DNA of 32,000 nucleotides from Candidatus Saccharimonadota bacterium (GTDB lineage: Bacteria > Patescibacteriota > Saccharimonadia > Saccharimonadales > UBA4665). The first letter of the stretch is position 1. Each line of letters starts with the position of its first letter. A model generated the notes under the pieces. The model saw only the letters and a list, made by a program, of their open reading frames with translations. It was not told the DNA's origin and made no database searches. A program made the position numbers and the translations under genes. The stretch lies in contig CP023991.1 of NCBI GenBank assembly GCA_003516025.1, positions 721,374 to 753,373 of the forward strand, in the 5' to 3' direction. Shown in pieces: positions 873 to 26,632 of this stretch.

Positions 873-1889
873 TCAGGCGGCCTTGTCCTGCGACTGGGTG
901 CGGGCGATCATCCTCTCGTTGATGTCGTGGGTGTTGGCGACGACGGGCATGTCGAGACCTCTGGAGCTGGCGAGCGCCATGATGGCGATCACCTCTTTGG
1001 GCAGGCACGCACCGGCGTAGGGACCCAGGTTGCGGGTGCCGTACTTCGGGTTGCGCAGCCCTTCGCAGGACACCTCGGAGATCTTGTAGATCAGTGCGAT
1101 CTCCGGGTCGGAGACGCGGTGGAGGCGGCAGAGCTGCTCGAACTCGCGGTTGAAGGCGATGCGGATGCCCTCGAAGAGGTCGGGTGCCGCGAAGACGGCC
1201 TGTATCTGCTGCTCGGTGAAGCCGTTGTCCTCCAGGTGCATGCGCAACTGGTTGCAGAACGAGATCTTCACCGCGTTGTAGACGTTGTGGTGGTACTTCT
1301 GCAGCTCGCCGGCGACGATGGAGGTCCACCGCATGGGGACGCCGAACGGCTCGTAGAGCTTCTCCATGACCTCCACGGAACGAACGTCCTGAGGGTGGTG
1401 GCCGATGGTCACGACCCGGGGGTTGAGGCTGTCAGCCAGCGGGTTCTTGTCGTCCGTCGGGTTCTCCGCACGGAGGTACTCGGGGTTGTAGACGACACCG
1501 AAGTCGACGCCGGCCTTCTTGCCCGAGATGTCCTCCATCTGTTGAGTCAGCTCCCTGGTCATGCCGGGGATCTGGGTGCAACGGAAGACGACGACCGGGT
1601 AGTGGGAGTCGTTGATCCCGCTGAGCTTGTCGGCGATGTCGTCGGCGGCGGCCCGGAGGTAGCTGGTGTCCTGGCCCTGGGGCGTGGACGGGGTCGGCAC
1701 CGAGACGAAGATCAGGTCCACGTGGTGGATGTTGACCTGGTCGGGACGGACGGCGTAGAGGCCGCGGCCCATGAGCTGCCAGATCCGCTCCTGCGAGACG
1801 TCGACGAACGTGACGTCGTGTCCGCGCTGGAGGAAAGCCTGGCCCGTGGCGGAACCGACGACACCGGAACCGTAGATGGCGATGTGCAT
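873..1889 (-). CDS. UDP-glucose/GDP-mannose dehydrogenase family protein (short form, 338 aa), high-GC xenolog with catalytic Cys intact
   Basis: N-terminal Rossmann motif MHIAIYGSGVVGSATG. Central-domain signature GELQKYHHNVYNAVKISFCNQLR. Active-site box YAGACLPKE, with the Cys codon at 1005-1007. RBS AAAGAGG lies 8 nt upstream of the ATG. Third codon positions are almost all G/C, unlike the flanks. Confidence 0.75.
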   Translation of the reverse strand: MHIAIYGSGVVGSATGQAFLQRGHDVTFVDVSQERIWQLMGRGLYAVRPDQVNIHHVDLIFVSVPTPSTPQGQDTSYLRAAADDIADKLSGINDSHYPVVVFRCTQIPGMTRELTQQMEDISGKKAGVDFGVVYNPEYLRAENPTDDKNPLADSLNPRVVTIGHHPQDVRSVEVMEKLYEPFGVPMRWTSIVAGELQKYHHNVYNAVKISFCNQLRMHLEDNGFTEQQIQAVFAAPDLFEGIRIAFNREFEQLCRLHRVSDPEIALIYKISEVSCEGLRNPKYGTRNLGPYAGACLPKEVIAIMALASSRGLDMPVVANTHDINERMIARTQSQDKAA

Positions 1890-2006
1890 GAGAGCACCTC
1901 TTTCGAGAGATCACTGCGGGTGGATTGGTGGCCACACTAGATGATGTAAAGAGCAAAATCACTCGGATTACATCAGAGCTGATGTGCGGGTGTGACTTGC
2001 ATTAGC

Positions 2007-2035
2007 AAACTAACATACTTTTGCTTTTGTGTCAA
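2007..2035 (-). promoter_or_regulatory. Sigma70-type promoter for 873-1889 (TTGACA-N17-TGtTAGTTT)
   Basis: On the minus strand, TTGACA (2030-2035), a 17-nt spacer, then extended -10 TGTTAGTTT (2007-2015). This gives a ~110-nt leader containing an ACATCA-GCTC-TGATGT hairpin. Confidence 0.4.
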
Positions 2036-2088
2036 TTATAGTCTATGTATCTTAAGCACTATAACAGTATAAATTTAATTACTCATTA

Positions 2089-2117
2089 TTGACTCTCTTA
2101 CAAAAAAATGTTAGTTT
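2089..2117 (+). promoter_or_regulatory. Sigma70-type promoter for the polysaccharide operon (TTGACT-N17-TGtTAGTTT)
   Basis: TTGACT at 2089-2094, a 17-nt spacer, then TGTTAGTTT at 2109-2117. The 10-mer ATGTTAGTTT is identical to the one in the divergent promoter at 2007-2016. Confidence 0.4.
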
Positions 2118-2162
2118 AATGTAAGTTAGCGCTCATTGTTACGCAGGCGCTCGCATATAATT

Positions 2163-3362
2163 ATGAAATTAATTTTTAACTGGATACAGCACCGGCTCAG
2201 GCAGCATCGCCTAGCTCTTATATGGAGCTGCTTTTTTGCAATTATACTTAGTATTATAATTGCCAGCGTAATATATAACGCAGCCCCCCGAAGTAGCTCG
2301 GAGTCGAATCAGCGGTATCGGCTTACCAATCCATTCGGCAGCCAGCCATCATATGGCAGTACCTATTATGTTAGCCCTAATGGCAACGATAAAAATGATG
2401 GCCTTGCAGAGAAAACTGCCTTTAAAAGTATCAACAAAGCGGTTAGCTACGCAGAGGCTGGAAATACCATTCAGCTCGCTGACGGTTTATATCGTCAAAC
2501 TATCTCCAGCGTTAAATCCGGCACACCAGGTAAGCCAATTATCCTTCGCGGCTCCCAAGCCGCCGTTGTAAATGGCTCGCCTGATGATAGCCGCATTGTT
2601 GAAGTACGCCATAATTACATTACTCTGGACGGCTTTACAATTGACGGCGCAAGCGGTGATGCGCGGCAACCGGAAGATTTTCAAGATAAATTGCTCTACG
2701 TAATTGGCAATGCGCCGCGGCAAGGCGTTGAGGGGCTGCACGTTACAAATATGCTCATCCAAAATGGTGGCGGTGAATGCGTACGGCTGCGTTATTACGC
2801 GGCTAACAATGAAATTGATCATTCGACTATCCGTAATTGCGGTATCTACGATTTTCGATTTGATGCAGGCAGTAAAAATGGAGAGGGCATATATATCGGC
2901 ACAGCCCCCGAGCAGACGGGTGACGGTAAAAATCCGACTTCAGATGTCGATACGTCCCATGACAATCATATCCATAACAATATTATCGAAACACATGGCA
3001 ATGAATGCGTTGATATAAAAGAAGGCTCCCACGACAATATCGTTGAGCATAACACTTGCCGATACCAGTCAGATCCTGAATCCGGCGGCTATGATGCCCG
3101 TGGCAGCAACAATACGATTCGCTATAACGTAAGTGAGCATAACAAAGGAGCGGGTGTCCGGCTTGGTGGCGACAAGAAAAGCGATGGCATCAATAATAAA
3201 GTGTACGGTAATACGCTCACCGATAATAAAAATGGTGTAATGAAAATCACCCGGTTACCACAGAGTACTGTGTGCGGTAACAAAAGCTCCGCCAACGGAA
3301 ACGGTGATAATACCGTCCGTAATATTGACGTTACAAAGAAATGTAATAATTCTATTGATTAA
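2163..3362 (+). CDS. Membrane-anchored right-handed parallel beta-helix protein (pectate-lyase fold, DUF1565-like)
   Basis: N-terminal TM segment LALIWSCFFAIILSIIIASVIY. This is followed by YYVSPNGNDKNDGLAEKTAFKSINKAVSYAEAGNTIQLADGLY, typical of beta-helix glycan-active proteins, and repeated N-x-I-x-x-N turns. The start is ambiguous: ATG 2163 is preferred over the track's TTG 2136. Confidence 0.6.
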   Translation: MKLIFNWIQHRLRQHRLALIWSCFFAIILSIIIASVIYNAAPRSSSESNQRYRLTNPFGSQPSYGSTYYVSPNGNDKNDGLAEKTAFKSINKAVSYAEAGNTIQLADGLYRQTISSVKSGTPGKPIILRGSQAAVVNGSPDDSRIVEVRHNYITLDGFTIDGASGDARQPEDFQDKLLYVIGNAPRQGVEGLHVTNMLIQNGGGECVRLRYYAANNEIDHSTIRNCGIYDFRFDAGSKNGEGIYIGTAPEQTGDGKNPTSDVDTSHDNHIHNNIIETHGNECVDIKEGSHDNIVEHNTCRYQSDPESGGYDARGSNNTIRYNVSEHNKGAGVRLGGDKKSDGINNKVYGNTLTDNKNGVMKITRLPQSTVCGNKSSANGNGDNTVRNIDVTKKCNNSID

Positions 3363-3389
3363 TTGTCAATAATAGTGTATTGTTATACT
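3363..3389 (+). promoter_or_regulatory. Possible internal extended -10 promoter
   Basis: TTGTCA (3363-3368), a 15-nt spacer, then TGtTATACT (3381-3389). An AGGAG RBS follows at 3411-3415, 9 nt before ATG 3425. Confidence 0.35.
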
Positions 3390-3424
3390 AACTATTCGAC
3401 AAGTATACATAGGAGCAGACCCGT

Positions 3425-4249
3425 ATGAAAATAGCAGTAATTGGTAGTGGTATTGCAGGCCAGGCAGTTGGTACGGCTTTAAGCAAACATGACAACAGTA
3501 TTATATTCGTAGACGTTATTAAAGCAGCGCTTCAGCCCTTACAGACTAAAGGCTATACGACCGAACTTGCCGATACCTATACCAAAATCAACACTGATAT
3601 TACCATGTTCTGCGTACCTGCGTCCCAGTTAGAAAAAGCTGTACGCTCCTTTGCCGCCCGTCTGAAAAACCATAATAAATACCACACTATCGTCATATGT
3701 TCGAGCATTGTACCAAACACTAGCCGGAAAAAGATACTACCACTTATCGAGTCGCTGTCTGGCAAAAAGGCTGCTATCGACTTCGGCATTGTGGTCCAAC
3801 CATTGTATGCGCGCTCAGAGACAATTAATCCAGATTCTGCCCGTCCATGGTTCATCCTTATTGGTGAACTAGATAAAAAATCCGGCGACACCATTGCACG
3901 GTTGTATACAAAATTCGATGCTCCGTTGGAACGCATGAGCCTGGAAGAGGCCGAGTTCCAAAAGTACGTCCACAATATGTTTAACGCAACTAAAATCAGC
4001 TTTTTTAATGAATTGCGGGTTATTGCCGTAAAAGAAGGCTGGAACGATACTGCTATTTTTGAAGCGGTAGCTGAAAGCTCGGAAGCAATTTGGAACCCTC
4101 TCTATGGCATACATGACAAAGGCGGTTTCAGTGGTACTGGCATTGAAGCTGACGCCGAAACCCTCGTTGATTGGGCGCAAGCGAACCAGTACGGCGTCGG
4201 TATTATTAAAGCCGTGCTAGCTGCGAACAAGGGCACTCACCGTGATTGA
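3425..4249 (+). CDS. UDP-glucose/GDP-mannose dehydrogenase family paralog (274 aa) lacking the catalytic cysteine
   Basis: MKIAVIGSGIAGQAVG Rossmann motif and EFQKYVHNMFNATKISFFNELR central signature. It is colinear with the 873-1889 product (GKKAAIDFGIVVQP vs GKKAGVDFGVVYNP). The active-site box reads FSGTGIEAD where the xenolog has YAGACLPKE, so Cys is replaced by Gly at codon 4139-4141 and Lys by Ala. The 3' end overlaps the GT2 start by 8 nt. Confidence 0.7.
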   Translation: MKIAVIGSGIAGQAVGTALSKHDNSIIFVDVIKAALQPLQTKGYTTELADTYTKINTDITMFCVPASQLEKAVRSFAARLKNHNKYHTIVICSSIVPNTSRKKILPLIESLSGKKAAIDFGIVVQPLYARSETINPDSARPWFILIGELDKKSGDTIARLYTKFDAPLERMSLEEAEFQKYVHNMFNATKISFFNELRVIAVKEGWNDTAIFEAVAESSEAIWNPLYGIHDKGGFSGTGIEADAETLVDWAQANQYGVGIIKAVLAANKGTHRD

Positions 4250-5846
4250 CGCCGAATTACTTAAAACCATCCTGCTGTATATTCCGCTTTCGCTGATTGG
4301 CGCTTGGCGCTGGACATTCTGGCTGGTTCGCCGTATAACCGCCGAGTTTTACAACCCACAAGTTCAACCGTGGCCTGCCGACGAGGTAAAGCCAACCACC
4401 AGCATTGTTACGCCAGTCTATAACGAGGACCCGATTGTTTTTGAAGAAGCAATGCAGTCCTGGATTGCAAATGGAGTCGATGAAATTGTTGCTGTTATCG
4501 ATAAGTCGAATACGCGGCATATTGTTGATTTCCAGAGGCGCTACGTCGATAATCCAACCGGTGAAACAGTTTGCCGTGTTGTAGTTACGCCGAAACCCGG
4601 CAAACGGGCCGCTCTCTGTGACGGTATTGAGGCAGCCACTGGTGATCTCATAGTTTTAGTTGATTCGGATACTATTTGGAGCAGCGATGTACTAGAGAAA
4701 ACTTTGCCATATTTCCAAAATGAACGAATTGGCGGCGCCACCGTTGCGCAGCGAATCCAAAATCCATATAACGTTGCTAATGTGATGTTCGACATCCTCC
4801 TATACTCGCGATATAAAGAAGAAGTACCGTTTCTACTTGCTACTGGCCGTGCCTTTAACACATTGTCTGGCCGTACGGCATTTTACCGACGCGAAGCAAT
4901 ATTTAATGACACGTACGACAACATGCATGCGCTTCGCCACGAATTTTTCCTAGGGACGCGTGGCATTTCAGGGGATGACAAGCGTTTGACACATTTAATT
5001 GTTGAACAGGGTTGGCACACCGCCTTTGTAAAAGGGCCGGTAGTACTGACACCAGGCCTGAATTCGGTGAAAAAGTTCTTAAAGCAGCGACTTCGCTGGA
5101 CACGCAATTCATGGCGCGCCGACCTGAGAGCCGTTGGCCGCGGTTGGGTATTCTCCCATCCTGCATTAGCGATATTTATGATCGACCGCTTCATACAACC
5201 AGTGTTTATGTTAATTGGTCCGGTAGTCATGACGTTCGCGCTCATCAACCATGAATGGTTATTCGCGGGCATTTTACTGGCATGGTGGTTCATTAGCCGT
5301 ATTATTCGAGTCTTCGGTTACTTCAAACAATACCCGAAGCGGCTAATATATCTGCCGGCTTATATTTTGTACGGTTATGCTAATGCCGTTATCAAAATAT
5401 ATGCCTTGGCTACCTTAATTGAGCACAGCTGGGCGACACGCTGGAATAAGGCTCGCGCAAAGCGCAAGAGCATTTTCCGCAAAGCATACACTGTTGTCAG
5501 CGGTTACGCAGCGATTGTCGTATTTATGGTACTAATCGTACAAATCGTATTATCGCTACGTACCCAAGCCGGCGCTGACATTACCGTACCAGCACCAGTC
5601 GATGCCACGGCGTTCAATCAGCAAGTTCAAAACGTAACTCAGCTACAAAAACAACCGCCAGCACCGCAAGGCTACATTGATCCTACTGTCGTTAAAGAAT
5701 ATACGGTTCAGTCTGGCGACACTTTATCCGGCCTGTCGATCCAATTCAATATGACCGTCCAAGACATAAAGCGGTTCAATACTTTGCGCACTAATGCCTT
5801 AATACCAGGACAAGTCATTTTTTACTATATGGCAACACAAGGATAA
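4242..5846 (+). CDS. Processive family-2 glycosyltransferase (hyaluronan/chitin synthase/NodC/Alg8-like) with C-terminal LysM domain
   Basis: GTG start with an AAGGG RBS. TM segments are present at the N-terminus and after the catalytic domain. Motifs: VDSDT (4662-4673), FYRRE, GDDKRLT and Q-R-L-R-W (5085-5099, the QxxRW processivity motif). C-terminal LysM YTVQSGDTLSGLSIQFNMTVQDIKRFNTLRTNALIPGQVIF lies at about 5700-5828. Confidence 0.8.
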   Translation: MIDAELLKTILLYIPLSLIGAWRWTFWLVRRITAEFYNPQVQPWPADEVKPTTSIVTPVYNEDPIVFEEAMQSWIANGVDEIVAVIDKSNTRHIVDFQRRYVDNPTGETVCRVVVTPKPGKRAALCDGIEAATGDLIVLVDSDTIWSSDVLEKTLPYFQNERIGGATVAQRIQNPYNVANVMFDILLYSRYKEEVPFLLATGRAFNTLSGRTAFYRREAIFNDTYDNMHALRHEFFLGTRGISGDDKRLTHLIVEQGWHTAFVKGPVVLTPGLNSVKKFLKQRLRWTRNSWRADLRAVGRGWVFSHPALAIFMIDRFIQPVFMLIGPVVMTFALINHEWLFAGILLAWWFISRIIRVFGYFKQYPKRLIYLPAYILYGYANAVIKIYALATLIEHSWATRWNKARAKRKSIFRKAYTVVSGYAAIVVFMVLIVQIVLSLRTQAGADITVPAPVDATAFNQQVQNVTQLQKQPPAPQGYIDPTVVKEYTVQSGDTLSGLSIQFNMTVQDIKRFNTLRTNALIPGQVIFYYMATQG

Positions 5847-5850
5847 CACT

Positions 5851-7515
5851 ATGAAGAATAAAACCCCTCAACAGTCTGTCGCAAAATCTAATACAAAGAA
5901 GTTCCGGCGCCTGGGCAACCTTCGCCCGGTAGTACTCATTTTGCTCATTCCACTGGCGGTCGGAGCGTTAACAATCGGAGCTGTTGCGTCCGGTCTGTAC
6001 TACAATAGCGTCGCGCGGTTAGGCAGCGACCGGCTCATAACCCAGAACTGGCAGAGCGCCAACGATTCACTCGCCGCCCAACAACCAAAGTACGAGCGCA
6101 AATTCGCATATTACCAGGTTAAAGCCGGCCAAACCCTGGAAGATCTGTCTGAGTATTTTAGTGTCACCCCCAGCACTCTAGCTTCCATGAATCCGGGCAA
6201 TATTACAACTGGAACGACTGTCAAAATTCCTGCCCTCGAAGCGCCATATACGCCAAAAAACGGCCCAAACGGCCTGCTTGGTACTGCAGCTGTCACTGAT
6301 GAAGCTGGCGTAATCCATATTACGAGTAAGTACGGTTACGGGACACATATCGATACCAATATACCTGAAATTGCCAGTTTCCTGGCGCCATACAATGCGA
6401 TTGAACAGATCAGTCCAAAAGTATTCCGCTTTAACCGTCCAGTTTCAATTGACGGCGACATTCGGATAGACATAACAACCGCTACTGTCAGCCGCATTGA
6501 GCTTCGCAGCGCGCCGAACGACATCACCTGCCTGTGTTTTGACCAGTCAGCCGCATTGATTGACGGCGTTACGATTACTTCTTACGATCCCACAACAAAA
6601 CAAGCCGATGACAACTACTCAGACGGACGCAGTTTTGTGCGCATGAAAAACGGCCGCATGGATACCATAAATACTACTTTCACGCGTCTCGGCAATGGCA
6701 TCGACAGTGCTGTTCCAGGGTCACCATTTTATGGCACACAACAAGACGGCGGCGTCTACGGCGTATCATGGCGTATTTCAAGCATGACGCTGGGGAAGCA
6801 AATTACTACCGGCTGGGTAGAGGGCTCAACTTTTGAACACAACTACTTTGGTGCCTACACCTTTGGTGCCTCAGGCATGCTCTGGAGGGGTAATACATTC
6901 GACGCAAATCACGTATACGGCCTTGATCCTCACGATGACAGTAATAACGCACTCATTGAAAACAATATTTTCAAAAACAATGAAAAGCACGGCTTTATCG
7001 TGTCGAAGCGCTGCAACTACAATATTATCCGTAACAACCTCTCGCTGGACAATAAAGTTAACGGCTTTATGTTACACCAGGACTCAGCCTACAATTTAAT
7101 TGAGAACAACGTCTCAGCTGGCAATACCGATAACTACGTTATTTACGAGTCCAACTACAACACCATTAGTAACAATAAAAGTTATAACGCCAGTTCAAGC
7201 CATATCCGCGTTAATCAATCTTCACACAACACTTTCATAACCGGCAACCAGACATACGGCAATGGACGGGGCATATTCCTTTACGACGGTGTTACAAATA
7301 CGCTAATCAGTCAAAACACTATCCAGGGAAGCGGCAAAAAATTACAGACAAATAACGCTCAGAACACTGTCTTCCTCAATAATAAGGTTAGCGACATTCA
7401 CTATGACATTAATGAAGGCGACCGGATGATTTTCGGCCCGAATACCGCCAAAACTGTCGACATGACCATACCGGCAGACCAGGCTTTACTAACGGCATTC
7501 GAGAAGAAGCAATAA
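5851..7515 (+). CDS. Membrane-anchored LysM + right-handed beta-helix protein, mannuronan C5-epimerase (AlgG/AlgE)-like
   Basis: N-terminal TM segment, then LysM YYQVKAGQTLEDLSEYFSVTPSTLASMNPGNITTGTTVKIP (6109-6231). The block YGLDPHDDSNNALIENN...KHGFIVSKRCN carries the DPHD motif (6925-6936) that is conserved in AlgG. Many NN-x-x-x-N beta-helix turns. RBS AAGGA lies 7 nt upstream. Confidence 0.6.
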   Translation: MKNKTPQQSVAKSNTKKFRRLGNLRPVVLILLIPLAVGALTIGAVASGLYYNSVARLGSDRLITQNWQSANDSLAAQQPKYERKFAYYQVKAGQTLEDLSEYFSVTPSTLASMNPGNITTGTTVKIPALEAPYTPKNGPNGLLGTAAVTDEAGVIHITSKYGYGTHIDTNIPEIASFLAPYNAIEQISPKVFRFNRPVSIDGDIRIDITTATVSRIELRSAPNDITCLCFDQSAALIDGVTITSYDPTTKQADDNYSDGRSFVRMKNGRMDTINTTFTRLGNGIDSAVPGSPFYGTQQDGGVYGVSWRISSMTLGKQITTGWVEGSTFEHNYFGAYTFGASGMLWRGNTFDANHVYGLDPHDDSNNALIENNIFKNNEKHGFIVSKRCNYNIIRNNLSLDNKVNGFMLHQDSAYNLIENNVSAGNTDNYVIYESNYNTISNNKSYNASSSHIRVNQSSHNTFITGNQTYGNGRGIFLYDGVTNTLISQNTIQGSGKKLQTNNAQNTVFLNNKVSDIHYDINEGDRMIFGPNTAKTVDMTIPADQALLTAFEKKQ

Positions 7516-7528
7516 GGGAACCCCCGTT

Positions 7529-8899
7529 ATGGAAGCTACGGCATTATTCTGGAAACGACCGTACACCGATCATACAAAGCGTATGGTGTTGGGTTTATTG
7601 CTGGTAATATTGGGGAGCCTGTTGTTTGTTACCGGTCACAGTGACGCAACGACGGCCGCTTCATGCCAAAAGAGTGTTACCCGCTATGCCGGTACTACCA
7701 ATACCATTTATATCGCAGGTGCCGATGTAGTGTGTACTCCAGCAGACATTCAGGTTATGTATCCGTCAAGCATGAAACACCCAAAAGCACGAACTTTCAT
7801 GCTCAAGTCAAACATCGTACTCCAACAAGGCGCGACACTGATCATTAAAGGCGGAACAGCTTCCGATGCTACCACCGATGAATTCCGTATGATGTCCAAC
7901 AATAATAATATGACCAACAATTTCGTAAACATAACTGCCGATTACGGCACCGTCCATATCACTAATACTAAGGTTAAGTCATGGGATGAAGCTACCAAAG
8001 CCGCCGATACAGAATACGGTGACATATATAAGCGGGCGTTTATACGCGTCCGTTCACGGGCAATCGGAAACGTACAAAACATATCACGTATGAATATCGT
8101 TAATAGCGATATTGGATATTTAGGATATTATGGTGCCGAAAGCTACGGCCTTGCATGGAAAGTCATGGACAGTGCGTTTGATAAAGTGGATGTACTGGGA
8201 AACATTACCAATAGTCGTATCCATAATAACTATTTTGGTGTGTATACCTTTGGCGCCTTCGGTATGGTTATCAATCAAAATGAATTCGATCATAACATTA
8301 AATATGGTCTTGATCCGCACGATGACTCGGATTCATTGAAGATCACCAATAACTCTTCACACCACAACGGTGACCATGGCATTATATGCTCGCAGCGCTG
8401 TGACAACTTACTAATTAGCGGCAATAACTCCTATAGCAATGCCGGGCACGGCATCATGCTGCATCGTTCAGTTGACAACTCAATAATCGAAAACAACACG
8501 GTTGCCTATAACGGCGACACCGGCATCGCGCTGTTTGAAAGTAATCACAATATCATCCGAGGCAATCTGGTAAAAAGTAACAAAAACGGTATCCGCCTGT
8601 CAGTTGGGTCATCATACAATTTATTTGAAAATAATATTATAGAAAAGACTAAAGAAATTGCAATCTACACCTATAAGGGAAGCGACACACCCGTACGTAG
8701 TGATGGTATAAATGCCGGCAATGCCTGGAAGACAAATACCGTTACCGGCACCGGTTTACTGGTACTGCAACTTACTGCTACACATGGTGATCAGTTTAAA
8801 AGTAATAGTTTTGCTGGAAATCCATTAGCCGGTTATGACACCAACCGAGTTACTAACACATCGTTTGTTAGTAACTCAACCGACTTAAACAATCTCTAG
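7529..8899 (+). CDS. Membrane-anchored/secreted right-handed beta-helix protein, second AlgG/AlgE-like C5-epimerase homolog
   Basis: N-terminal hydrophobic anchor MVLGLLLVILGSLLFV. YGLDPHDDSDSLKITNN...DHGIICSQRCDN with DPHD at 8312-8323. It is a paralog of the 5851-7515 product (NNYFGVYTFGAFGM vs HNYFGAYTFGASGM). Confidence 0.6.
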   Translation: MEATALFWKRPYTDHTKRMVLGLLLVILGSLLFVTGHSDATTAASCQKSVTRYAGTTNTIYIAGADVVCTPADIQVMYPSSMKHPKARTFMLKSNIVLQQGATLIIKGGTASDATTDEFRMMSNNNNMTNNFVNITADYGTVHITNTKVKSWDEATKAADTEYGDIYKRAFIRVRSRAIGNVQNISRMNIVNSDIGYLGYYGAESYGLAWKVMDSAFDKVDVLGNITNSRIHNNYFGVYTFGAFGMVINQNEFDHNIKYGLDPHDDSDSLKITNNSSHHNGDHGIICSQRCDNLLISGNNSYSNAGHGIMLHRSVDNSIIENNTVAYNGDTGIALFESNHNIIRGNLVKSNKNGIRLSVGSSYNLFENNIIEKTKEIAIYTYKGSDTPVRSDGINAGNAWKTNTVTGTGLLVLQLTATHGDQFKSNSFAGNPLAGYDTNRVTNTSFVSNSTDLNNL

Positions 8900-8916
8900 C
8901 CGACCGAGCTGTGATA

Positions 8917-8956
8917 ACGTAAAATAGGTCTCATAGAAGACTTATTTTACGTTTTT
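8917..8956 (+). terminator. Rho-independent terminator of the synthase-epimerase operon
   Basis: 15-bp stem ACGTAAAATAGGTCT (8917-8931) / AGACTTATTTTACGT (8938-8952) with one G-U pair that only works on the plus strand. The loop is CATAGA, followed by a T-run to 8956. Confidence 0.75.
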
Positions 8957-8985
8957 GCCAATTAATTTCTCTTATGCTTTATACT
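8955..8985 (+). promoter_or_regulatory. Promoter of the PL7 lyase gene, leaderless layout
   Basis: TTGCCA (8955-8960), a 19-nt spacer (long), then TATACT (8980-8985), then exactly 7 nt to ATG 8993. There is no SD. Confidence 0.4.
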
Positions 8986-8992
8986 ACTGCGT

Positions 8993-9931
8993 ATGAAGTT
9001 CAGCCGTATCCAGATATGTAGCCTGCTAAGCTTTATCGTAATCATATTCCTGATTAGTGCCGTAGCAGTCTACAACAACTATGGCACCATACCATTATCA
9101 CCGGTTACCGTTACCTCACAGAAAATAAATAATCCACAGATTGCAACTCAACCGGCAACATCCCAGACTACTACGAATAAGCAAACTGCACCGCCAAGCG
9201 CTTCCCAGTCTAGTTCCGCCGCCGCCCCATCAGTAGAAATAAAACCTCAGCCTGTACGGCCTGTAATCAATGCGCCATCCCAACTTATTGACCTGTCTAA
9301 CTGGTATGTAACACTTCCAACCGACAATGATGGCAATGGAAGGGCTGATGAAATTCACCAGCCCTCATTGGCAGGCTTCAGTGTGGCACATTATTTTATG
9401 CTTAACGATGCCCGCAATGGCATCATTTTCCAAGCTCATGCCGGAGGCGCTACAACATCAGGCTCACATTATCCACGGAGTGAACTCCGAGAAATGGCTG
9501 ACAACGGCACAGTCAAAGCGGCATGGTCCAATACCAGTGGCAGTCATAGTATGACCGTAACGGAAGCAATTACCCATTTACCATCTGCTAAGCCGGAGGT
9601 TGTAGCGGCCCAGATACATGATGCTAACGATGACGTCATTATGATACGGCTGGAAGGACGGCGCTTATTCGTAGAAAGCGATGATGGGAAAAATAGCGGT
9701 GACCTCGATACAGCCTACACACTTGGCACTACCTTTACAGTTCGTATTCTTGCCGAAAATGGCCACATATACGTTTCATACAATGGCGTAGCTAAAGTTG
9801 ATCTTGCTCGGAGCGGCTCAGGATTCTATTTTAAAGCCGGCTGTTACACGCAATCCAACACTACAAAAGGCGACAGCGGCGATGCGTACGGCCAGGTTAT
9901 TATGTATGGTTTAAGCGTTACACACTCGTAG
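8993..9931 (+). CDS. Polysaccharide lyase family 7 (alginate/polyuronate lyase-like), membrane-anchored with S/T/P/Q-rich linker
   Basis: All three PL7 signature blocks are present. R-S-E-L-R-E lies at 9476-9493, Q-I-H at 9611-9619 and Y-F-K-A-G-C-Y-T-Q at 9827-9853. N-terminal anchor LLSFIVIIFLISAVAV. Confidence 0.75.
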   Translation: MKFSRIQICSLLSFIVIIFLISAVAVYNNYGTIPLSPVTVTSQKINNPQIATQPATSQTTTNKQTAPPSASQSSSAAAPSVEIKPQPVRPVINAPSQLIDLSNWYVTLPTDNDGNGRADEIHQPSLAGFSVAHYFMLNDARNGIIFQAHAGGATTSGSHYPRSELREMADNGTVKAAWSNTSGSHSMTVTEAITHLPSAKPEVVAAQIHDANDDVIMIRLEGRRLFVESDDGKNSGDLDTAYTLGTTFTVRILAENGHIYVSYNGVAKVDLARSGSGFYFKAGCYTQSNTTKGDSGDAYGQVIMYGLSVTHS

Positions 9932-10394
9932 CGGCGATTTGGCTGCTTTTAGCAATGATGGCAGTAGTACTAGTTACCTTCGGCGCGTCCGATACGACAA
10001 CCCTTATAGTAGGATTGATAGTAGAAAGATAATTTTTTATCTGTGGCGAGACAGCTTCATAGTTCAGCAGCAGTATGTCAGGCTTAACGGCTGTCAGTAT
10101 TTTTGGATCGTAGTGCGGTACACTATCGATAAACACATAGTCTACGTATCGTATGGCAGCAATTAACTTAGCGCGATCGTTTTGAGCATTAATAGGACGG
10201 GCAGGGCCTTTTTTCTGCCTGACACGCTCGTCACTCGTTACGTGCACAATCAGTGTTTCGCCGTATGCTTTAGCTTCACGCAAATGATCAATGTGGCCAC
10301 TGTGTAGAATGTCGAATACTCCGCCGATTAAAACAACGTTATGCAAACTTGGACGGATTGAGGCAATCTCAGCCAAAGAATAAAGCTTTTCCAT
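9918..10394 (-). CDS. Cytidylyl/adenylyltransferase family protein (TagD / RfaE domain II-like)
   Basis: VLIGGVFDILHSGHIDHLREAK matches the G-x-F-D-x-x-H-x-G-H nucleotidyltransferase motif. The product is 158 aa. It overlaps the PL7 gene end convergently by 14 nt. Confidence 0.65.
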   Translation of the reverse strand: MEKLYSLAEIASIRPSLHNVVLIGGVFDILHSGHIDHLREAKAYGETLIVHVTSDERVRQKKGPARPINAQNDRAKLIAAIRYVDYVFIDSVPHYDPKILTAVKPDILLLNYEAVSPQIKNYLSTINPTIRVVVSDAPKVTSTTAIIAKSSQIAATSV

Positions 10395-10455
10395 ATAATT
10401 ATTTTTACATATTATATTATATATGTCAATACATAATTGATACTATGCATTACTA

Positions 10456-10484
10456 TTGATCATTTATACAATTCATGATATAAT
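10456..10484 (+). promoter_or_regulatory. Strong extended -10 promoter, leaderless layout
   Basis: TTGATC (10456-10461), a 17-nt spacer, TGaTATAAT (10476-10484), then 7 nt to ATG 10492. Confidence 0.55.
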
Positions 10485-10491
10485 TACCCCC

Positions 10492-11232
10492 ATGAATAAA
10501 GCGGGAGTGCTTTTCACTAAAACTAACGTAGACACATCCCAGCACGCCGGCAGTCGGCCTGAACATACCGCTGCCTGGTCGGATTGGGCTATTAAGCGCG
10601 CTCCGGAACTACGGGCAATGCAACAAGCTGGGTTACTCGGAAGTGAAAACCGCGCCTGGCGTAACGTAGCGGAGCACTGTCTAGTAGTCAATGCGACAGC
10701 AATGTTTATTGCCACACATATCAAAGTCGCAGGCACCGCCCTTGATAGCCACCTCATAGACCAGGGAAGCATGCTCCATGACGCAACTAAACGACTCGAA
10801 AAAGAACAGGGAGTCGGCTACAGTAACGAGCATGGTTCGCCGCTTAGAAAAAACTTTTTATCGCTACTTGGTTATCCAGAAGAAGTAATTGCAGTCACCG
10901 AGTATACGGGACGCGTACCTGAAATGTTCATACAAGACACCACTGAGCGCCACGCAGCCATTCAGGCTCAGCCGCTTGAGCAGCTCGTTGTCGCCTATGC
11001 CGATGCCCGGGTTCGCAATGTAAATATCGTACCCCTCGAGCAAGCACGCGACATGAACAAGCAAAAAGTTCCTGCCGATGCGACGGTATACGATCAGTGG
11101 TACGACTTTTACCACGATGTAGAAAACCGTATCTTTGCAACAATTGGCAGAAATGCCATTTGCGCTGATTCACTTAACAATGATGCAGTGATTACTATGG
11201 TGCAACAAACGTATCAAAATAACGGTGCATAA
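10492..11232 (+). CDS. HD-domain phosphohydrolase
   Basis: NVAEHCLVV ... GSMLHDATKR gives the H...HD metal-binding pattern. The start is moved from the track's TTG 10456 (which is the -35 box) to ATG 10492 (MNKAGVLF) because of the promoter geometry. Confidence 0.6.
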   Translation: MNKAGVLFTKTNVDTSQHAGSRPEHTAAWSDWAIKRAPELRAMQQAGLLGSENRAWRNVAEHCLVVNATAMFIATHIKVAGTALDSHLIDQGSMLHDATKRLEKEQGVGYSNEHGSPLRKNFLSLLGYPEEVIAVTEYTGRVPEMFIQDTTERHAAIQAQPLEQLVVAYADARVRNVNIVPLEQARDMNKQKVPADATVYDQWYDFYHDVENRIFATIGRNAICADSLNNDAVITMVQQTYQNNGA

Positions 11233-11288
11233 CGGGGCTAGCCCTGACTTTAAATTAAATTTAAGGTACAACAGGTACACTTAGTGGC

Positions 11289-11960
11289 ATGAGAATACTT
11301 GTAGTCGAAGATGAACACCGCATTGCCCACGCTATTAAGGAAGGCCTGGAGCAGGAAACTTACGCCGTTGACGTCTGTTACGACGGGGAAGATGGTTACA
11401 ACACAGCTACGGCCGACGATTATGATTTAATCATTTTAGACGTCATGATGCCGCGAATGAACGGCTACGAGGTCTGTCGTAAGCTGCGCGAGAGCGGTAA
11501 CCACACGCCCGTCCTAATGCTGACGGCCAAGGACCAGAACCGCGACATCGTACAGGGACTGGATAACGGTGCCGACGATTACTTAGCCAAGCCATTTTCG
11601 TTTGAAGTATTACTGGCGCGTATTCGGGCGCTGCTACGCCGGCCCCATGAAACCGCCAGCGAAACACTGCAGGTTGGCGACCTGACCATGAACCCGGCCA
11701 GTCATCAGGTAGCCCGTGGCGGCATGGTGATTAATTTATCCAGCAAAGAATACGCAATTTTAGAATATTTGTTACGCAATCCGGGCAGAGTGCTCAGCAA
11801 AAACAACATTATGACGCACGTTTGGGATTTTGACGCCGACATCTTACCAAACAATGTCGAAGTGTTCATAACCTACTTGCGCGCCAAAGTCGACAAGCCC
11901 TTCGATGGGCCGGGTTTAATTCAGACCGTAAGGGGATTTGGGTATAAGATTGAAGCGTAG
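11289..11960 (+). CDS. OmpR/PhoB-family response regulator
   Basis: The REC domain has MRILVVEDE, DLIILDVMMP and LTAKD. The C-terminal winged helix ends in TVRGFGYKI. TACACT lies 7 nt before the ATG. Confidence 0.9.
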   Translation: MRILVVEDEHRIAHAIKEGLEQETYAVDVCYDGEDGYNTATADDYDLIILDVMMPRMNGYEVCRKLRESGNHTPVLMLTAKDQNRDIVQGLDNGADDYLAKPFSFEVLLARIRALLRRPHETASETLQVGDLTMNPASHQVARGGMVINLSSKEYAILEYLLRNPGRVLSKNNIMTHVWDFDADILPNNVEVFITYLRAKVDKPFDGPGLIQTVRGFGYKIEA

Positions 11961-11961
11961 C

Positions 11962-12999
11962 ATGATGCACCACGTCAACCGCGTACGTAGCTTTGCCCGA
12001 ACCAGCACCGCCCGGTTGAGTTTGTCATATCTGGCTATCATTATGCTCATGAGCATCGGCTTCAGCATTGTCTTTTATAATGCCTCGAGCCATGAGTTGG
12101 GCCGGCCACCGCGCGACGATAGTTCGCAGTCAGCCGATCCGACGGGATTCGGCCCTCGCTATGCCCGGGATCCGCAGTTCGATGAGTTTTTGCAGCAACG
12201 CGCCGAAGAAGGCCGCCAGGCGCTCCGTAACCGGTTAATCGTGCTTAACCTGGCAGCTCTCGCGGCAGGTTGCGCGCTCAGTTATTATCTGGCGCGCCGT
12301 ACACTGCAACCGATTGAAGCCAACATGGAGGCGCAGGCCCAATTCGTATCTGATGCCTCCCACGAACTGCGTACGCCACTCACCGCGCTGCAAACTACAA
12401 ACGAAGTGGCTTTACGGAAACCGAAACTAAGCGCAGCCGAAGCCCGCGACCTACTCGAACACAACGTGGCCGAAGTGGCTAAACTGCAATCGCTGACAGA
12501 CGGGTTGCTAAAGTTGGCGCGCCAAGACAATCAACCGGTTTCCCATAGCCCTGTTTCACTGCAAGAAGTTACCGGTGATGCCATGAACACTATCATCCAC
12601 CAGGCCCAGGCCAAAGATATTGCCATCGAGGATAACGTGCCACCAATGTTAGTATCAGGAGATCAGCCCAGTTTATCCCAAGCCGTAGTCATACTGCTGG
12701 ATAACGCCGTTAAATACAGCCCTCAAGGCAGCACGGTCCATCTTTCGGCCAGTCAGCAGGGCAAGTACGCCTTATTGGCGGTTCGCGATGCCGGCCAGGG
12801 TATTTCCGCTAAAGACCTGCCGCATATATTCGACCGCTTTTACCGTGCCGACCAGTCCCGCAATAAACAAACTGTCGACGGTTACGGCATCGGCCTCAGT
12901 ATGGCTAAGAAAATTATTGATCAGCACCACGGTGAAATAATCGCCAGCTCGGTAGAAGGTAAAGGATCGGCATTCACGCTCAAATTACCACTCAGCTAG
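11962..12999 (+). CDS. Sensor histidine kinase (HisKA + HATPase_c)
   Basis: H-box SDASHELRTPLTAL, N-box LDNAVKY, and G-boxes RDAGQGI and GYGIGLS. One N-terminal TM segment. ATG 11962 (1 nt after the regulator stop) is preferred; the track's TTG 11938 is an alternative. Confidence 0.85.
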   Translation: MMHHVNRVRSFARTSTARLSLSYLAIIMLMSIGFSIVFYNASSHELGRPPRDDSSQSADPTGFGPRYARDPQFDEFLQQRAEEGRQALRNRLIVLNLAALAAGCALSYYLARRTLQPIEANMEAQAQFVSDASHELRTPLTALQTTNEVALRKPKLSAAEARDLLEHNVAEVAKLQSLTDGLLKLARQDNQPVSHSPVSLQEVTGDAMNTIIHQAQAKDIAIEDNVPPMLVSGDQPSLSQAVVILLDNAVKYSPQGSTVHLSASQQGKYALLAVRDAGQGISAKDLPHIFDRFYRADQSRNKQTVDGYGIGLSMAKKIIDQHHGEIIASSVEGKGSAFTLKLPLS

Positions 13000-13161
13000 C
13001 AAGTCTATTGACATAAGCGCTATTACACCCGTTGTCAAGGGCATCTATCTTCATGCCACAATGTTACGCCCCTATACTCCAGGTTTTACGGCTTTAAGTA
13101 ACTTTTAATCCGTCCTCAGTATCCTCAAAGCATAACCAAATGTAATACAGGATATACAGCA

Positions 13162-14544
13162 ATGAATGTACTAAGTCGGGGCGTTCGAAATGCCTTCCGG
13201 AATAAAATCCGGACATTTTCGATTGTAGTAATTGTGGGCCTTAGCGTCGGCATGGCCCTAGCCATGCTAGTGGCGCGCCAGGCAGTGACTGATAAGATTA
13301 CCAGCGTTAAATCCAGCGTCGGTAACACGGTCAGCATTTCGCCAGCTGGTGTCCGCGGCTTTGACGGCGGCGGCAACGCCTTAACCGCGGCTGACATCGC
13401 CAAGGTGAGCAGCCTCAGCCATGTAACATCGGTTACGCAGAGCCTCAGCGACCGCTTAACAACCAGCGACACCGATCTGGAATCAGCCGTTGAGGCCGGC
13501 GCGCTGGGCCAGCGCTTTAACCGCGGTAGCGGTACGACAGGGGGCGATATGCCGACTCCGCCAGCCGGCGATGGTACCGCTACAGACGGCACTACAGCTA
13601 CTCAAAGCTTTACGCCGCCGGTCACCGTCATTGGTGCTACTGATCCGGAAACCGCGCTCAGTACCAGCCAAGGGGGCGGAACATTTACGCTGACCAGCGG
13701 TGAAGTCTTTGCCGGCGACAGCAGTGAAAACGTTGCCGTAATCGGTAAAGGACTAGCCGAAAAGAACAGCCTGACGGTCGGTTCAACCTTCCAGGCCTAC
13801 GGCCAGACCATCAAGGTCGTCGCTATCTACGACGCCGGCAATACCTTCAGCAACAACCAGGTGATAATGCCGCTCAATACAGTGCAGACCCTGAGCGAGC
13901 AAGCAGACGCTGTTACCAGTGCGACCCTAAACGTTGATTCCATCGACAATGTGGCCAGCGTAAGTAGCGCCGCTTCCAGCGCCCTCGGCGACACGGCTGA
14001 CGTAACCAACGCTTCCGAGCAAGCTGAAAGTGCCGTCGCGCCGCTCGAAAATATCCAGACTATTTCACTGTACAGCCTGATTGGCGCCCTGATCGCCGGC
14101 GCGGCCATCATATTGCTGACCATGGTCATGATTGTCCGGGAACGCCGCCGTGAAATTGGCGTCATCAAGGCCATCGGCGCTTCAAACTTGAACGTCATGA
14201 CACAGTTTGCTTCTGAAGCTGTAACTTTTACGGTACTTGGCGCTATCATTGGCATCGTGTTCGGCCTGGTAGCCGGCAACCCGATTACCCAGCTACTGGT
14301 TAACAACTCTGCCAGCAGTACCGCAAGCGCAGCCGGCGGCCCCGGGATGGGTGGTGGCCAGGGAATGGGCGGCCGAGGAATCGGTGCGGTTGGACGCACG
14401 GTAACCAACGTAACCGCGAGTGTCGGCGTCGACATCATCCTATACGGTCTTGGCGTCGCCATCCTGATCGCCATCGTGGGCAGCGCCCTGGCATCATTCT
14501 TCATCGCTAAAGTAAGACCAGCAGAGGTCATGCGGGCCGAGTAA
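13162..14544 (+). CDS. ABC transporter permease, MacB/FtsX-like
   Basis: N-terminal TM segment, a large extracytoplasmic domain, and a C-terminal FtsX-type bundle (REIGVIKAIGAS). AGGA RBS. It is adjacent to the cognate ATPase. Confidence 0.8.
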   Translation: MNVLSRGVRNAFRNKIRTFSIVVIVGLSVGMALAMLVARQAVTDKITSVKSSVGNTVSISPAGVRGFDGGGNALTAADIAKVSSLSHVTSVTQSLSDRLTTSDTDLESAVEAGALGQRFNRGSGTTGGDMPTPPAGDGTATDGTTATQSFTPPVTVIGATDPETALSTSQGGGTFTLTSGEVFAGDSSENVAVIGKGLAEKNSLTVGSTFQAYGQTIKVVAIYDAGNTFSNNQVIMPLNTVQTLSEQADAVTSATLNVDSIDNVASVSSAASSALGDTADVTNASEQAESAVAPLENIQTISLYSLIGALIAGAAIILLTMVMIVRERRREIGVIKAIGASNLNVMTQFASEAVTFTVLGAIIGIVFGLVAGNPITQLLVNNSASSTASAAGGPGMGGGQGMGGRGIGAVGRTVTNVTASVGVDIILYGLGVAILIAIVGSALASFFIAKVRPAEVMRAE

Positions 14545-14572
14545 ATCCCGGCGCGCACAAGAAAGGAACATT

Positions 14573-15247
14573 ATGTTACAAGTAGAAAACGTTAAACGCA
14601 GTTTTAAATCCGGGGATATAACTGTCAGCGCAGTTAATGATGTCAGCTTTACCGTTCCGGACGGCCAGTTCGCCAGCATCATCGGTAAGAGCGGCTCCGG
14701 TAAAAGTACGTTGCTCAGTCTGCTGGGCGCCCTCGACAAACCAACCAGCGGCAGCATCACTATCGATGGTAAAGATATAGCTAAAATGAACGACCATGCG
14801 CTCATTGGCTACCGTTGCCAGAAAATTGGTTTCGTGTTCCAGAGCTACAACCTGGTACCCAACCTGACAGCCCTCGAAAACGTTATGCTGCCGATGGAAT
14901 TCGCTAAAGTGGGCAAAAAAGAGCGTACAGACCGGGCTGTAAAACTATTGGAGCAAGTTGGACTCACCGAGGACCAAATGACCCGTAAACCCGGTAAATT
15001 GAGTGGCGGGCAGCAGCAGCGCGTTTCCATAGCCCGGGCACTGGCAAATAAGCCGAAACTCATCTTGGCAGATGAACCAACCGGCAACCTGGACAGCCAA
15101 ACCGGCAAAATGGTTTTCGACCTGCTGCATAACCTGGCTAAAAGCGAAGACACTACTATCGTCACCGTAACGCACGACCTGAGCATCGCCGACAAAACCG
15201 ACCGGACATTCCAGCTGCAGGATGGCAAATTGACGGAGGTTAAATAG
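14573..15247 (+). CDS. ABC transporter ATP-binding protein (MacB/LolD type)
   Basis: Walker A GKSGSGKST, Q-loop, signature LSGGQQQR, Walker B LILADEPT and H-loop VTHD. Confidence 0.9.
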   Translation: MLQVENVKRSFKSGDITVSAVNDVSFTVPDGQFASIIGKSGSGKSTLLSLLGALDKPTSGSITIDGKDIAKMNDHALIGYRCQKIGFVFQSYNLVPNLTALENVMLPMEFAKVGKKERTDRAVKLLEQVGLTEDQMTRKPGKLSGGQQQRVSIARALANKPKLILADEPTGNLDSQTGKMVFDLLHNLAKSEDTTIVTVTHDLSIADKTDRTFQLQDGKLTEVK

Positions 15248-15249
15248 CC

Positions 15250-18349: not shown

Positions 18350-18457
18350 GAACGTCGTCCGCCTCTCCGTTGGTTTATTTTCCCAAATACTACCCCTATT
18401 TTTTCAAACACTGGTGCTATATGCAAGTTTCATCAATTAACCGGCTGGATAGCAGAT

Positions 18458-19159: not shown

Positions 19160-19162
19160 ACC

Positions 19163-20125: not shown

Positions 20126-20190
20126 AATAGTCGGCCCCTGGATACTAAGCAGTTAAATAGTTTACATAACCGTGCTGCTGGCAGCGCTAG

Positions 20191-23261: not shown

Positions 23262-23380
23262 AGTATCCTTTATATAACTTGTATTACATGCGATCAGTCG
23301 ACGTGGCCAGCAATAGACGTATTGTTGAACATGCTGAATGATGGAAGAAGTAGCGCACACGCCTTGGAAAGGGCCCGGGT

Positions 23381-23425: not shown

Positions 23426-23445
23426 CGGGTGTTGCCGGAGATCTG

Positions 23446-26629: not shown

Positions 26630-26632
26630 ACT

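Follow-up and report, generated by a model that had tools for sequence, protein, structure and literature searches.

How few proteins can a single-membrane cell use to make an alginate-type polymer? The detailed picture of alginate biosynthesis comes from Pseudomonas and Azotobacter alone, whose pathway takes around 12 proteins and two membranes; Saccharibacteria have an envelope of Gram-positive type. The question is raised by a locus in a 32,000-nt stretch of contig CP023991.1 from a Candidatus Saccharimonadota bacterium (the whole analysed stretch is called the window, and locus coordinates are window positions). At 873-9931, seven genes encode two sugar-nucleotide dehydrogenases (DH2 and DH_short), a processive membrane glycosyltransferase of family GT2, two AlgG-type beta-helix proteins (Epi1 and Epi2), a further beta-helix protein (BH1) and a polysaccharide lyase of family PL7. 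We propose that together they probably make an exopolysaccharide of alginate type (mannuronate/guluronate), as a minimal synthase-dependent system in monoderm format. Judged by homology, four independent components (dehydrogenase, synthase, epimerases and lyases) point to mannuronate/guluronate; the identity of the polymer, which an initial annotation of this DNA had left open, is thus less open than it was said to be.

The six co-oriented open reading frames (ORFs) of that annotation are all present, and every motif it quoted could be located in GT2, Epi1, Epi2 and PL7. DH2 is divergent from these six. None of the seven ORFs is disrupted, their junctions are tight or overlapping, and the gene order is algD-alg8-algG-lyase, as in Pseudomonas. 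The locus takes up nearly 1% of a roughly 1-Mb genome. For comparison we used 78 homologous loci, retrieved by an alignment-based GT2 scan of GTDB species genomes; this type of scan was needed, as a single-sequence genome scan with Epi2 found nothing.

Two putative alginate lyases

The last gene of the locus, PL7 (8993-9931, plus strand), encodes 312 aa: an anchor (residues 8-26), a linker rich in Ser, Thr, Pro and Gln, and a catalytic jelly-roll (residues 94-312, nt 9272-9931). It matches Pfam PF08787 (Alginate_lyase2) with E 1e-45 and 157 bits against a cutoff of 29.7, in agreement with the family first assigned to it from three signatures. These signatures, R162SELRE, Q207-I-H209 and Y279FKAGCYTQ, align with the same blocks of the structures 1uai and 5zqi. 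The catalytic domain is 57.7% identical to AlgAT5 (5zqi, E 2e-72) and 47.5% identical to AlyPG (1uai, E 1e-58), the polyguluronate lyase of Corynebacterium (EC 4.2.2.11).

BH1 opens the row of plus-strand genes (2163-3362 by the gene caller; an upstream TTG at 2136 is equally open) and encodes a membrane-anchored beta-helix of the DUF1565 or Pel9A-like type. A transmembrane (TM) helix lies at about residues 19-37, Pfam recognises DUF1565 (E 7e-6) and Beta_helix, and there is no DPH motif. The beta-helix fold ascribed to this third protein is borne out; its resemblance is to a PL31 alginate lyase, unlike AlgG. The AlphaFold2 (AF2) model has a pLDDT of 92, and its top Foldseek match is 6kfn, the PL31 alginate lyase PsAly (EC 4.2.2.3), with E 3e-10, a TM-score of 0.76 on the target, a root-mean-square deviation of 3.1 A and 22% identity. 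Among PDB entries, 6kfn is likewise the top match of a profile built from the BH1 family (E 8e-11). Going by this model, BH1 is a probable PL31-like alginate lyase of mannuronate type and no AlgG-type epimerase. The locus would then pair a G-lyase-like enzyme, PL7, with an M-lyase-like one, BH1, a homologue of which is found in 22 of the 78 related loci.

AlgG-type beta-helix proteins

Epi1 (5851-7515, plus strand, 554 aa) and Epi2 (7529-8899, plus strand, 456 aa) are right-handed beta-helix proteins; both match Beta_helix/NosD in Pfam, and both align in part with the NCBIfam AlgG model. Epi1 has a TM anchor at residues 27-45, a weak LysM at residues 88-126 (nt 6112-6228) and the motifs Y356GLDPHDDS (DPHD at nt 6925-6936) and H380GFIVSKRC. 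Epi2 has its anchor at residues 19-37, no LysM, and Y259GLDPHDDS (DPHD at nt 8312-8323) with H283GIICSQRC. The best PDB match of Epi2 is the solved AlgG 4ozz (E 1e-20), and both proteins align with 4ozz and 4nk6 through YG[IL]DPHD[RD]S and HG[IF]I[IVC]S, so the two DPHD beta-helices of the initial annotation stood the comparison with AlgG through the very region that defines them. Against Pseudomonas AlgG they score 77-82 bits (Epi1, 77); scores against AlgE4 are much lower, and no resemblance to pectate-lyase types was seen. Of 81 homologous ORFs, 73 retain the motif G[LIFV]DPHDDS.

The two proteins are old paralogues, 36% identical. Epi2 belongs to a stand-alone subgroup that is present as a second copy in other genomes of the candidate phyla radiation (CPR) too. 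Epi1, for its part, is 30-45% identical to the C-terminal half of fused synthase-epimerase proteins and is orthologous to the domain that is joined to the synthase in other phyla; we take it for a probable mannuronan C5-epimerase on the basis of its sequence. In the closest relative with two epimerase paralogues (L002, 11560-13275), the Epi1 orthologue reads YGLDLHDDS, with Pro replaced by Leu, and the Epi2 orthologue keeps DPHD.

Could these beta-helices be lyases, hydrolases or export chaperones, so that the product would be unepimerised polymannuronate? The same active-site motif serves both lyase and epimerase activity in AlgE7, and AlgG of Pseudomonas has a structural, non-catalytic role as well. 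The residue before the catalytic Tyr also varies among subgroups (V; K/M/T/Q; R/Q/E), and no clear epimerase-like versus lyase-like pattern was found in it. However, the nearest solved relative is the epimerase AlgG, ahead of AlgE7-type enzymes, and PL7 is closest to a polyguluronate-specific lyase, which is sensible only if guluronate is made. The His and Asp of DPHD, named as the catalytic residues (PMC11468063), are conserved as well. We consider a non-epimerase role for these proteins highly improbable, and keep the reading of Epi1 and Epi2 as candidate epimerases.

Conservation and synthase-epimerase fusion

The related loci come from Saccharimonadales (GT2 identity 54-74%), many other CPR phyla, Chloroflexota and Actinomycetota. 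The synteny check suggested in the initial annotation came out in favour of a conserved unit: about 65 of the 78 loci have the dehydrogenase-GT2-epimerase core, and this recurrence argues that the gene combination is no chance juxtaposition. Synthase and epimerase are fused in around 50 of these. When counting is limited to the 46 loci with complete flanks, a dehydrogenase stands beside the synthase in 43 and an epimerase in 45, and 31 loci have the fusion. The 15 split loci hold 15 dehydrogenases, 14 epimerases, 13 PL7 and two BH1 genes; the corresponding numbers for the 31 fused loci are 28 dehydrogenases, five PL7 and 14 BH1. An exhaustive HMMER search gave 165 clusters (50% identity) at E<=1e-30, with many of the top matches 810-1150 aa in length.

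The fused ORFs of 880-1003 aa consist of the GT2, its membrane domain and, straight after the last TM helix, a DPHD beta-helix that occupies the place of the linker and LysM in the window GT2. Among the sequence comparisons, this Rosetta-stone arrangement gives the strongest evidence for synthase and epimerase working as a single unit outside the cytoplasm.

Metagenome-assembled genomes (MAGs) of Actinomycetota (Aeromicrobium, Propionibacteriaceae; L014-L020 and L054) carry the split, LysM-bearing form, with a GT2 57-59% identical to that of the window. These loci have 63-67% GC and on this account are truly actinobacterial. Cultivated Saccharibacteria are episymbionts of Actinomycetota, and their known hosts come from that phylum. 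The split form shared by Saccharimonadales and Actinomycetota suggests transfer between them, in either direction.

In the full-text literature on Saccharibacteria or Patescibacteria and alginate, epimerases or hyaluronan synthases, we found no published description of this system. The initial statement that no described system has this architecture therefore stands as far as the literature goes, with the correction that the cassette is widespread and not peculiar to this genome. We also looked for cultured carriers. In Pseudarthrobacter oxydans (L080, GCA_044755145.1, 8001-12377), a short dehydrogenase, a 418-aa GT2, a YGLDPH beta-helix and a PL7 form a cassette of 51% GC within 60%-GC flanks, lying between IS21 and ISL3 transposases and a resolvase. 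It was rejected as a carrier of the same cassette: its GT2 is of a different subfamily and has no BLAST match to the window GT2. We read it instead as a mobile form of the module, carried by a named genome that is not a MAG. Actinomadura, Spirillospora and Bailinhaonella, examined for the same reason, had partial sets only.

Around the fused cassettes of other CPR phyla we observed several recurrent neighbours: an FN3-like protein with a multi-TM tail (15 loci; for example L068 1343-2212), a sortase-like protein (11 loci; L051 15804-16424), a BNR/sialidase-like protein (10 loci; L030 7433-8782) and an acidic 'GNGSDSENE' repeat protein (seven loci; L068 8889-10127). None of the four is found in the window.

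A degenerate and an intact dehydrogenase

DH_short (3425-4249, plus strand, 274 aa) and DH2 (873-1889, minus strand, 338 aa) both match the N-terminal and central domains of UDPG_MGDP_dh in Pfam and NCBIfam; for DH2 these are PF03721 (E 5e-24) and PF00984. Pseudomonas aeruginosa AlgD (1mfz) is the best PDB match of each (E 1e-28 for DH_short, 6e-23 for DH2), above any solved UDP-glucose dehydrogenase. For an intact member of the family, that of L018, the score is 159 bits with AlgD and 117 with the top UDP-glucose dehydrogenase, a difference of 42 bits. The initial annotation had named a 6-dehydrogenase-family gene at 3425-4249 and a second copy at 873-1889: the family is confirmed by Pfam, while the first gene turns out to be degenerate and the second to be the intact one.

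DH2 keeps the GxGxxG motif (GSGVVG), NPEYLR, the lysine of NAVKISF and the catalytic GAC295LPKE, which aligns with GGSC268LPKD of AlgD, so that the AlgD-type catalytic Cys is present. DH_short keeps GxGxxG and has lost the catalytic Cys and Lys (it reads GGFSGTGIEAD where GSCLPKD is expected, with Gly at the Cys position). Its VPTPT loop has a 10-residue deletion, QPLYARS replaces NPEYLRE, and around 25 C-terminal residues are missing. With the Cys and these other conserved features lost, DH_short is most likely catalytically dead and DH2 the working enzyme of the locus. The 3' end of DH_short overlaps the start of GT2 by 8 nt; given this overlap of its stop codon with the synthase start, the protein may act as a scaffold, and we regard it as a probable pseudo-enzyme or scaffold.

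The loss is exceptional within the family. G[SA]CLPKD, or its CLPKE form, is retained in about 70 of the 73 family ORFs retrieved from related loci; it is missing from DH_short and from the cassette copy of L003, and one more ORF is a truncated fragment. The window and L003 are also the only loci with a second, divergently transcribed copy, whose motif is intact (GACLPKE), and DH2-type copies are present on contigs of other close relatives.

Family members are typically 290-300 aa long and have no C-terminal nucleotide-sugar-binding domain (PF03720), which was found in neither window copy nor in any of the 120 listed DH2 homologues. With 274 and 338 aa against 436-438 aa for AlgD, the window proteins do not have the three-domain AlgD architecture. 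By analogy, the short format would not be a defect, since the biochemically characterised GDP-mannose dehydrogenases (GMDs) of brown algae are 315-320 aa long. They have GxGxVG near the N-terminus, GGxCLPKDV at 256-267, some 55-60 residues from the C-terminus, and a Pro five positions ahead of the catalytic Cys (PMC4782291). The cassette family has the same Pro (GPFDGSCLPKD), and its CLPKD lies near residue 250. The Ectocarpus enzyme is reportedly without the C-terminal domain as well.

DH2 stands apart in composition: it has 64.6% GC and 92.6% GC at third codon positions (GC3), against a GC3 of 44-53% in its neighbours and a genome of about 50% GC. It carries a 35-residue insertion, and its closest database relative is only 40% identical. 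This gives it the look of a recent acquisition from a high-GC source. The public gene call at 855-1940 is the opposite, plus-strand ORF (361 aa, no Pfam match), which is why the DH2 protein is missing from protein databases.

These features raise the question whether the locus is decaying or partly functional here, with enzymes that mainly degrade or remodel the alginate-like polymers of neighbours or hosts. Four separate conserved features are gone from DH_short, and DH2 has no relative above 40% identity, a long insertion and a GC3 of 93%. One could add the presence of two lyases, the position of the whole cassette within a low-GC island, the sharing of the cassette with Actinomycetota at 57-59% identity and the related cassette flanked by insertion sequences in Pseudarthrobacter. 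Yet all seven ORFs are intact and closely joined, and DH2 keeps every catalytic motif that was checked. The two-copy arrangement of L003, with the same loss in the same copy, and the DH2-type copies elsewhere speak for a stable division of labour, and lyases are normal in synthase-dependent exopolysaccharide operons, as exemplified by AlgL in the control operon. We therefore hold decay to be quite unlikely and prefer the reading of an alginate-type biosynthetic locus with DH2 as its dehydrogenase.

The synthase and the identity of the polymer

GT2 (4242-5846, plus strand, 534 aa) was assessed with Pfam, BLASTP, hhalign and an AF2 model. It matches Glyco_tranf_2_3 (E 1e-29) and LysM (E 1e-11), and its motifs D141-S-D, G244DDKRLT and Q282RLRW bear out the processive GT2 of the initial annotation. 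An N-terminal TM helix is followed by the GT-A domain, a membrane domain (about residues 308-436, with S396WATR), an extracellular linker and the C-terminal LysM (residues 487-526, nt 5700-5819).

Compared directly with Pseudomonas Alg8, GT2 is 23% identical over 358 aa by BLASTP (E 1e-13), and hhalign aligns the two over 399 columns across the glycosyltransferase and membrane domains (probability 98.8%, E 4.5e-17). In phmmer, Alg8 scores 52.7 bits, PcManGT 45.4 and CvHAS 44.5. A sequence search of the PDB puts an archaeal GDP-mannose-using GT2 (6yv7) and hyaluronan synthases (HAS) at the top; the top Foldseek match of the AF2 model (pLDDT 83) is the Chlorella virus HAS (TM-score 0.60-0.64, 15-18% identity). 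In sequence terms, GT2 is a distant, full-length homologue of Alg8, below orthologue-level similarity, and its predicted fold is class-I-HAS-like. The reference alg operon (L089) is an authentic Pseudomonas operon from a metagenome, its AlgG being 93% identical to a P. syringae protein.

An assignment of GT2 as HAS-like and not Alg8-like, drawn from the lack of an alginate-named NCBIfam match and from the top fold, was overturned by the direct comparison with Alg8. As a control, the GT2 at the Alg8 position of a Rhizobium alg-like operon also receives only a weak NodC match in NCBIfam; as it is equally unrecognised, the NCBIfam negative for GT2 is uninformative.

A different acidic polymer could nevertheless be made by the same architecture if the dehydrogenase acted on a UDP-sugar; candidates are beta-1,4-glucuronan, a hyaluronan- or heparosan-like GlcA/GlcNAc copolymer with GlcA-to-IdoA conversion, and poly-N-acetylhexosaminuronate. 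The closest solved structures of the synthase are hyaluronan synthases, JGI labels many members of its family 'hyaluronan synthase', and its best curated NCBIfam model is NodC (90 bits). LysM domains bind GlcNAc-containing glycans, and PL7 as a family includes a glucuronan lyase, 7nde. Against this, the match of the window PL7 to 7nde is marginal (E 6e-6), compared with 48-58% identity to alginate lyases; the best match of BH1 is an alginate lyase too. The dehydrogenase family scores 42 bits higher with the GDP-mannose enzyme than with any solved UDP-sugar one, and on one phmmer scale Alg8 stands above HAS for the synthase. A peptidoglycan anchor is the simpler explanation for LysM, because the domain also occurs on Epi1 and is replaced by the fusion in other phyla. 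A polymer other than an alginate-type one is thus unlikely in our estimate.

Several points do weigh against an alginate-type product. The AlgG model NF038177 gives Epi1 88 bits and Epi2 111 bits, far under its equivalog cutoff of 700, so that they are members of the AlgG family and no orthologues, and beta-helices of the DPHD type can act as lyases too. GT2 is only 23% identical to Alg8 and nearly as similar to HAS and to the archaeal GDP-mannose GT2, the NodC model is its best NCBIfam match, and the donor sugar of a GT2 is not readable from sequence. DH2, the only intact dehydrogenase, may itself be non-functional, being highly divergent and compositionally foreign with its 35-residue insertion. 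Both dehydrogenases are without the nucleotide-binding domain of AlgD, and their specificity for GDP-mannose would follow by analogy with the algal enzymes.

Anchoring and accessory parts

BH1, Epi1, Epi2 and PL7 have one N-terminal hydrophobic anchor each, as first described for the extracytoplasmic enzymes, and the dehydrogenases have none. LysM had been attributed to two proteins: for GT2 this is clear, whereas the Epi1 domain, with the same pattern as that of GT2, reaches 19.7 bits and stays under the Pfam cutoff of 20.9. A sortase gene lies on the same contig. Together with the genome size of roughly 1 Mb and the naming of GT2 homologues (54-74% identity) as Candidatus Saccharibacteria or Saccharimonadales, it marks the host as a CPR bacterium with a reduced genome.

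The Pseudomonas proteins AlgD, Alg8, Alg44, AlgK, AlgE, AlgG, AlgX, AlgL, AlgI and AlgJ of the reference operon were compared with the entire 32-kb window by tblastn (E<=0.01), and only homologues of AlgD, Alg8 and AlgG matched. Alg44 was not found in this search, nor was a PilZ or HlyD Pfam domain in the proteins of the locus; AlgK and AlgE were likewise missing from the window, with no Sel1/TPR or porin domains. The same holds for AlgX, AlgI, AlgJ and the PL5 lyase AlgL; AlgF was outside the query set. The initial remark that proteobacterial accessory parts are absent is thereby confirmed for Alg44, AlgK, AlgE, AlgX, AlgI and AlgJ over the whole window. Missing outer-membrane export is consistent with a Gram-positive-type envelope.

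Proposed pathway

We now propose a scheme for the locus, with which the predicted topology of its proteins is consistent. DH2 would oxidise GDP-mannose to GDP-mannuronate in the cytoplasm, as its homology and intact catalytic motifs suggest; the catalytically dead DH_short may only partner the synthase. From its fold and motifs, GT2 is expected to polymerise the sugar and to extrude the chain through its own membrane channel, and its last TM helix would place the C-terminal LysM on the outside, at the peptidoglycan. Epi1 (with its LysM) and Epi2, working at the outer membrane surface of the cell's single membrane, would turn some of the mannuronate to guluronate, to judge by their DPHD/HG core. 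The anchored lyases, the polyG-lyase-related PL7 and the polyM-lyase-related BH1, may trim or release the polymer, in the role of AlgL.

Comparison with known systems

The locus has its homologues of AlgD, Alg8 and AlgG in the order of the alg operon of Pseudomonas and Azotobacter (algD-8-44-K-E-G-X-L-I-J-F-A), and in both a lyase comes after them. Synthase-dependent polymerisation and polymer-level C5 epimerisation would also be common to both, as far as the genes of the window allow one to say. The lyases differ, however (PL7 and PL31-like here, PL5 in alg), and so do the tethering of the enzymes by single TM anchors and LysM and the dehydrogenase, which is without its C-terminal domain. In relatives of the window cassette, synthase and epimerase are moreover one polypeptide.

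An alg-like operon with some of the same parts is found in Rhizobium: a dehydrogenase, a GT2 21% identical to that of the window, an AlgG-like beta-helix and a lyase (L084). In contrast to the window it has a diderm format, with a full-length PF03720 dehydrogenase, HlyD/Alg44-like and Sel1/AlgK-like proteins and a PL5 lyase. This unannotated operon lies at 3021-19685 of chromid pRPC (1.95 Mb) of Rhizobium sp. BG6; it contains a 1246-aa protein ending in an AlgG-like beta-helix and three Sel1-repeat proteins, and AlgG-like genes similar to its own occur on eight other Rhizobium chromids.

Class I HAS is the closest solved fold of the synthase, with shared GDDxxLT, QxxRW and C-terminal W-x-TR motifs. 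The has operon (HasA and HasB) also resembles the locus in placing a single polymerase-translocase beside a sugar-nucleotide dehydrogenase without outer-membrane parts. Its dehydrogenase is a full-length UDP-glucose dehydrogenase, whereas the one here is short and GMD-like; the operon has neither epimerases nor PL7, and sequence identity is 15-18%.

The portion of a 2020 survey considered here places alginate operons mostly in Pseudomonas spp., with atypical ones in environmental (deep-sea) bacteria, reports Pel in Gram-positives, and mentions no monoderm or CPR alginate-type cassette (PMC7112194). The atypical alginate and Gram-positive Pel operons described in that portion are a precedent for the loss of outer-membrane modules and for adaptation to other envelopes (PMC7112194). 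The cassette is best seen as a new form of alginate-type biosynthesis, minimal and monoderm, that is widespread in uncultured lineages.

The brown-algal pathway, compared by its published description, has the short GMD format (around 300-320 aa, CLPKD near residue 250-260, no C-terminal domain) and epimerases with the DPHD motif. It differs in being eukaryotic, with synthesis at the Golgi and plasma membrane, large ManC5-E (mannuronan C5-epimerase) gene families and PL41 lyases. Brown algae are held to have acquired GMD, mannuronan synthase and ManC5-E from an actinobacterium (PMC8307928). At 40% identity, a protein of Woesebacteriota (CPR) is the nearest relative of the algal GMD; the nearest ones of ManC5-E are actinobacterial, at around 30%; and for the algal synthase, a GT2 still to be identified, no homology to Alg8 can be detected (PMC11468063). 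The cassette occurs in just these bacterial groups (CPR and Actinobacteria) and has a GT2 linked to it.

A bolder idea, which we put forward as tentative and rather doubtful, is that the cassette family was the prokaryotic source of the alginate pathway of the brown-algal ancestor, and that ultra-small episymbionts coat themselves with a true alginate gel. If so, the cassette GT2 would identify the long-sought algal family of mannuronan synthases, and the gel of ultra-small bacteria would be made by a three-enzyme core. Apart from this, the cassette suggests that three parts (a short GMD, an Alg8-like synthase and an epimerase), often in two polypeptides, suffice in single-membrane cells. It offers a minimal system for the mechanism and structure of coupled polymerisation and epimerisation, for which the natural fusions should be especially useful. 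It also gives the search for the bacterial roots of the brown-algal pathway a concrete candidate that can be tested, with a profile for seeking the missing algal synthase. A surface or matrix polymer of Saccharibacteria is a further possibility, and the compact gene sets could serve to engineer alginate production in Gram-positive hosts.

Regulatory region and genomic surroundings

DH2 and BH1 are separated by a divergent AT-rich intergenic region (1890-2162; 26-35% GC in the GC profile), which is probably the site of both the DH2 and the operon promoters. A consensus scan places a sigma-70-like minus-strand match at 2114-2085 within it; the promoter and terminator scans gave no information on the operon boundaries. 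No riboswitch, such as one of c-di-GMP type in place of PilZ, was found, and Rfam reported one tRNA only in the window.

The whole cassette lies in a low-GC island (around 1900-11250; 43-49% GC against 51-58% in the flanks). The island also holds a cytidylyltransferase-like gene resembling RfaE domain II (9918-10394, minus strand), which is convergent with PL7 and overlaps it by 14 nt, and an HD-domain gene (10456-11232). Neither is conserved beside the cassette elsewhere, and with both absent from all related loci, 9918-11232 was rejected as part of the locus.

Within a second low-GC patch (24568-26709), genes were noted for a transposase of the IS1595 family (24568-25464), for a protein with a P63C domain (25454-26467, minus strand) and for a tRNA (26636-26709, minus strand). 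The patch may represent a small element integrated beside the tRNA gene. At 21900-23528 (minus strand), a 542-aa protein has a short GH19 segment (class I chitinase or lysozyme-like) and could be a cell-wall hydrolase relevant to the episymbiotic lifestyle; the two ORFs that precede it (19163-21843, minus strand) have no Pfam match.

Two-component genes are unusually dense for a roughly 1-Mb genome (11289-18349 and 26926-29669). An OmpR-type regulator and a kinase (11289-12999) lie immediately downstream of the island; a MacB/FtsX-type ABC system is found at 13162-15247 and a PAS-rich kinase at 16271-18349 (minus strand). A further kinase (26926-28266) and a 437-aa response regulator (28356-29669) complete the set.

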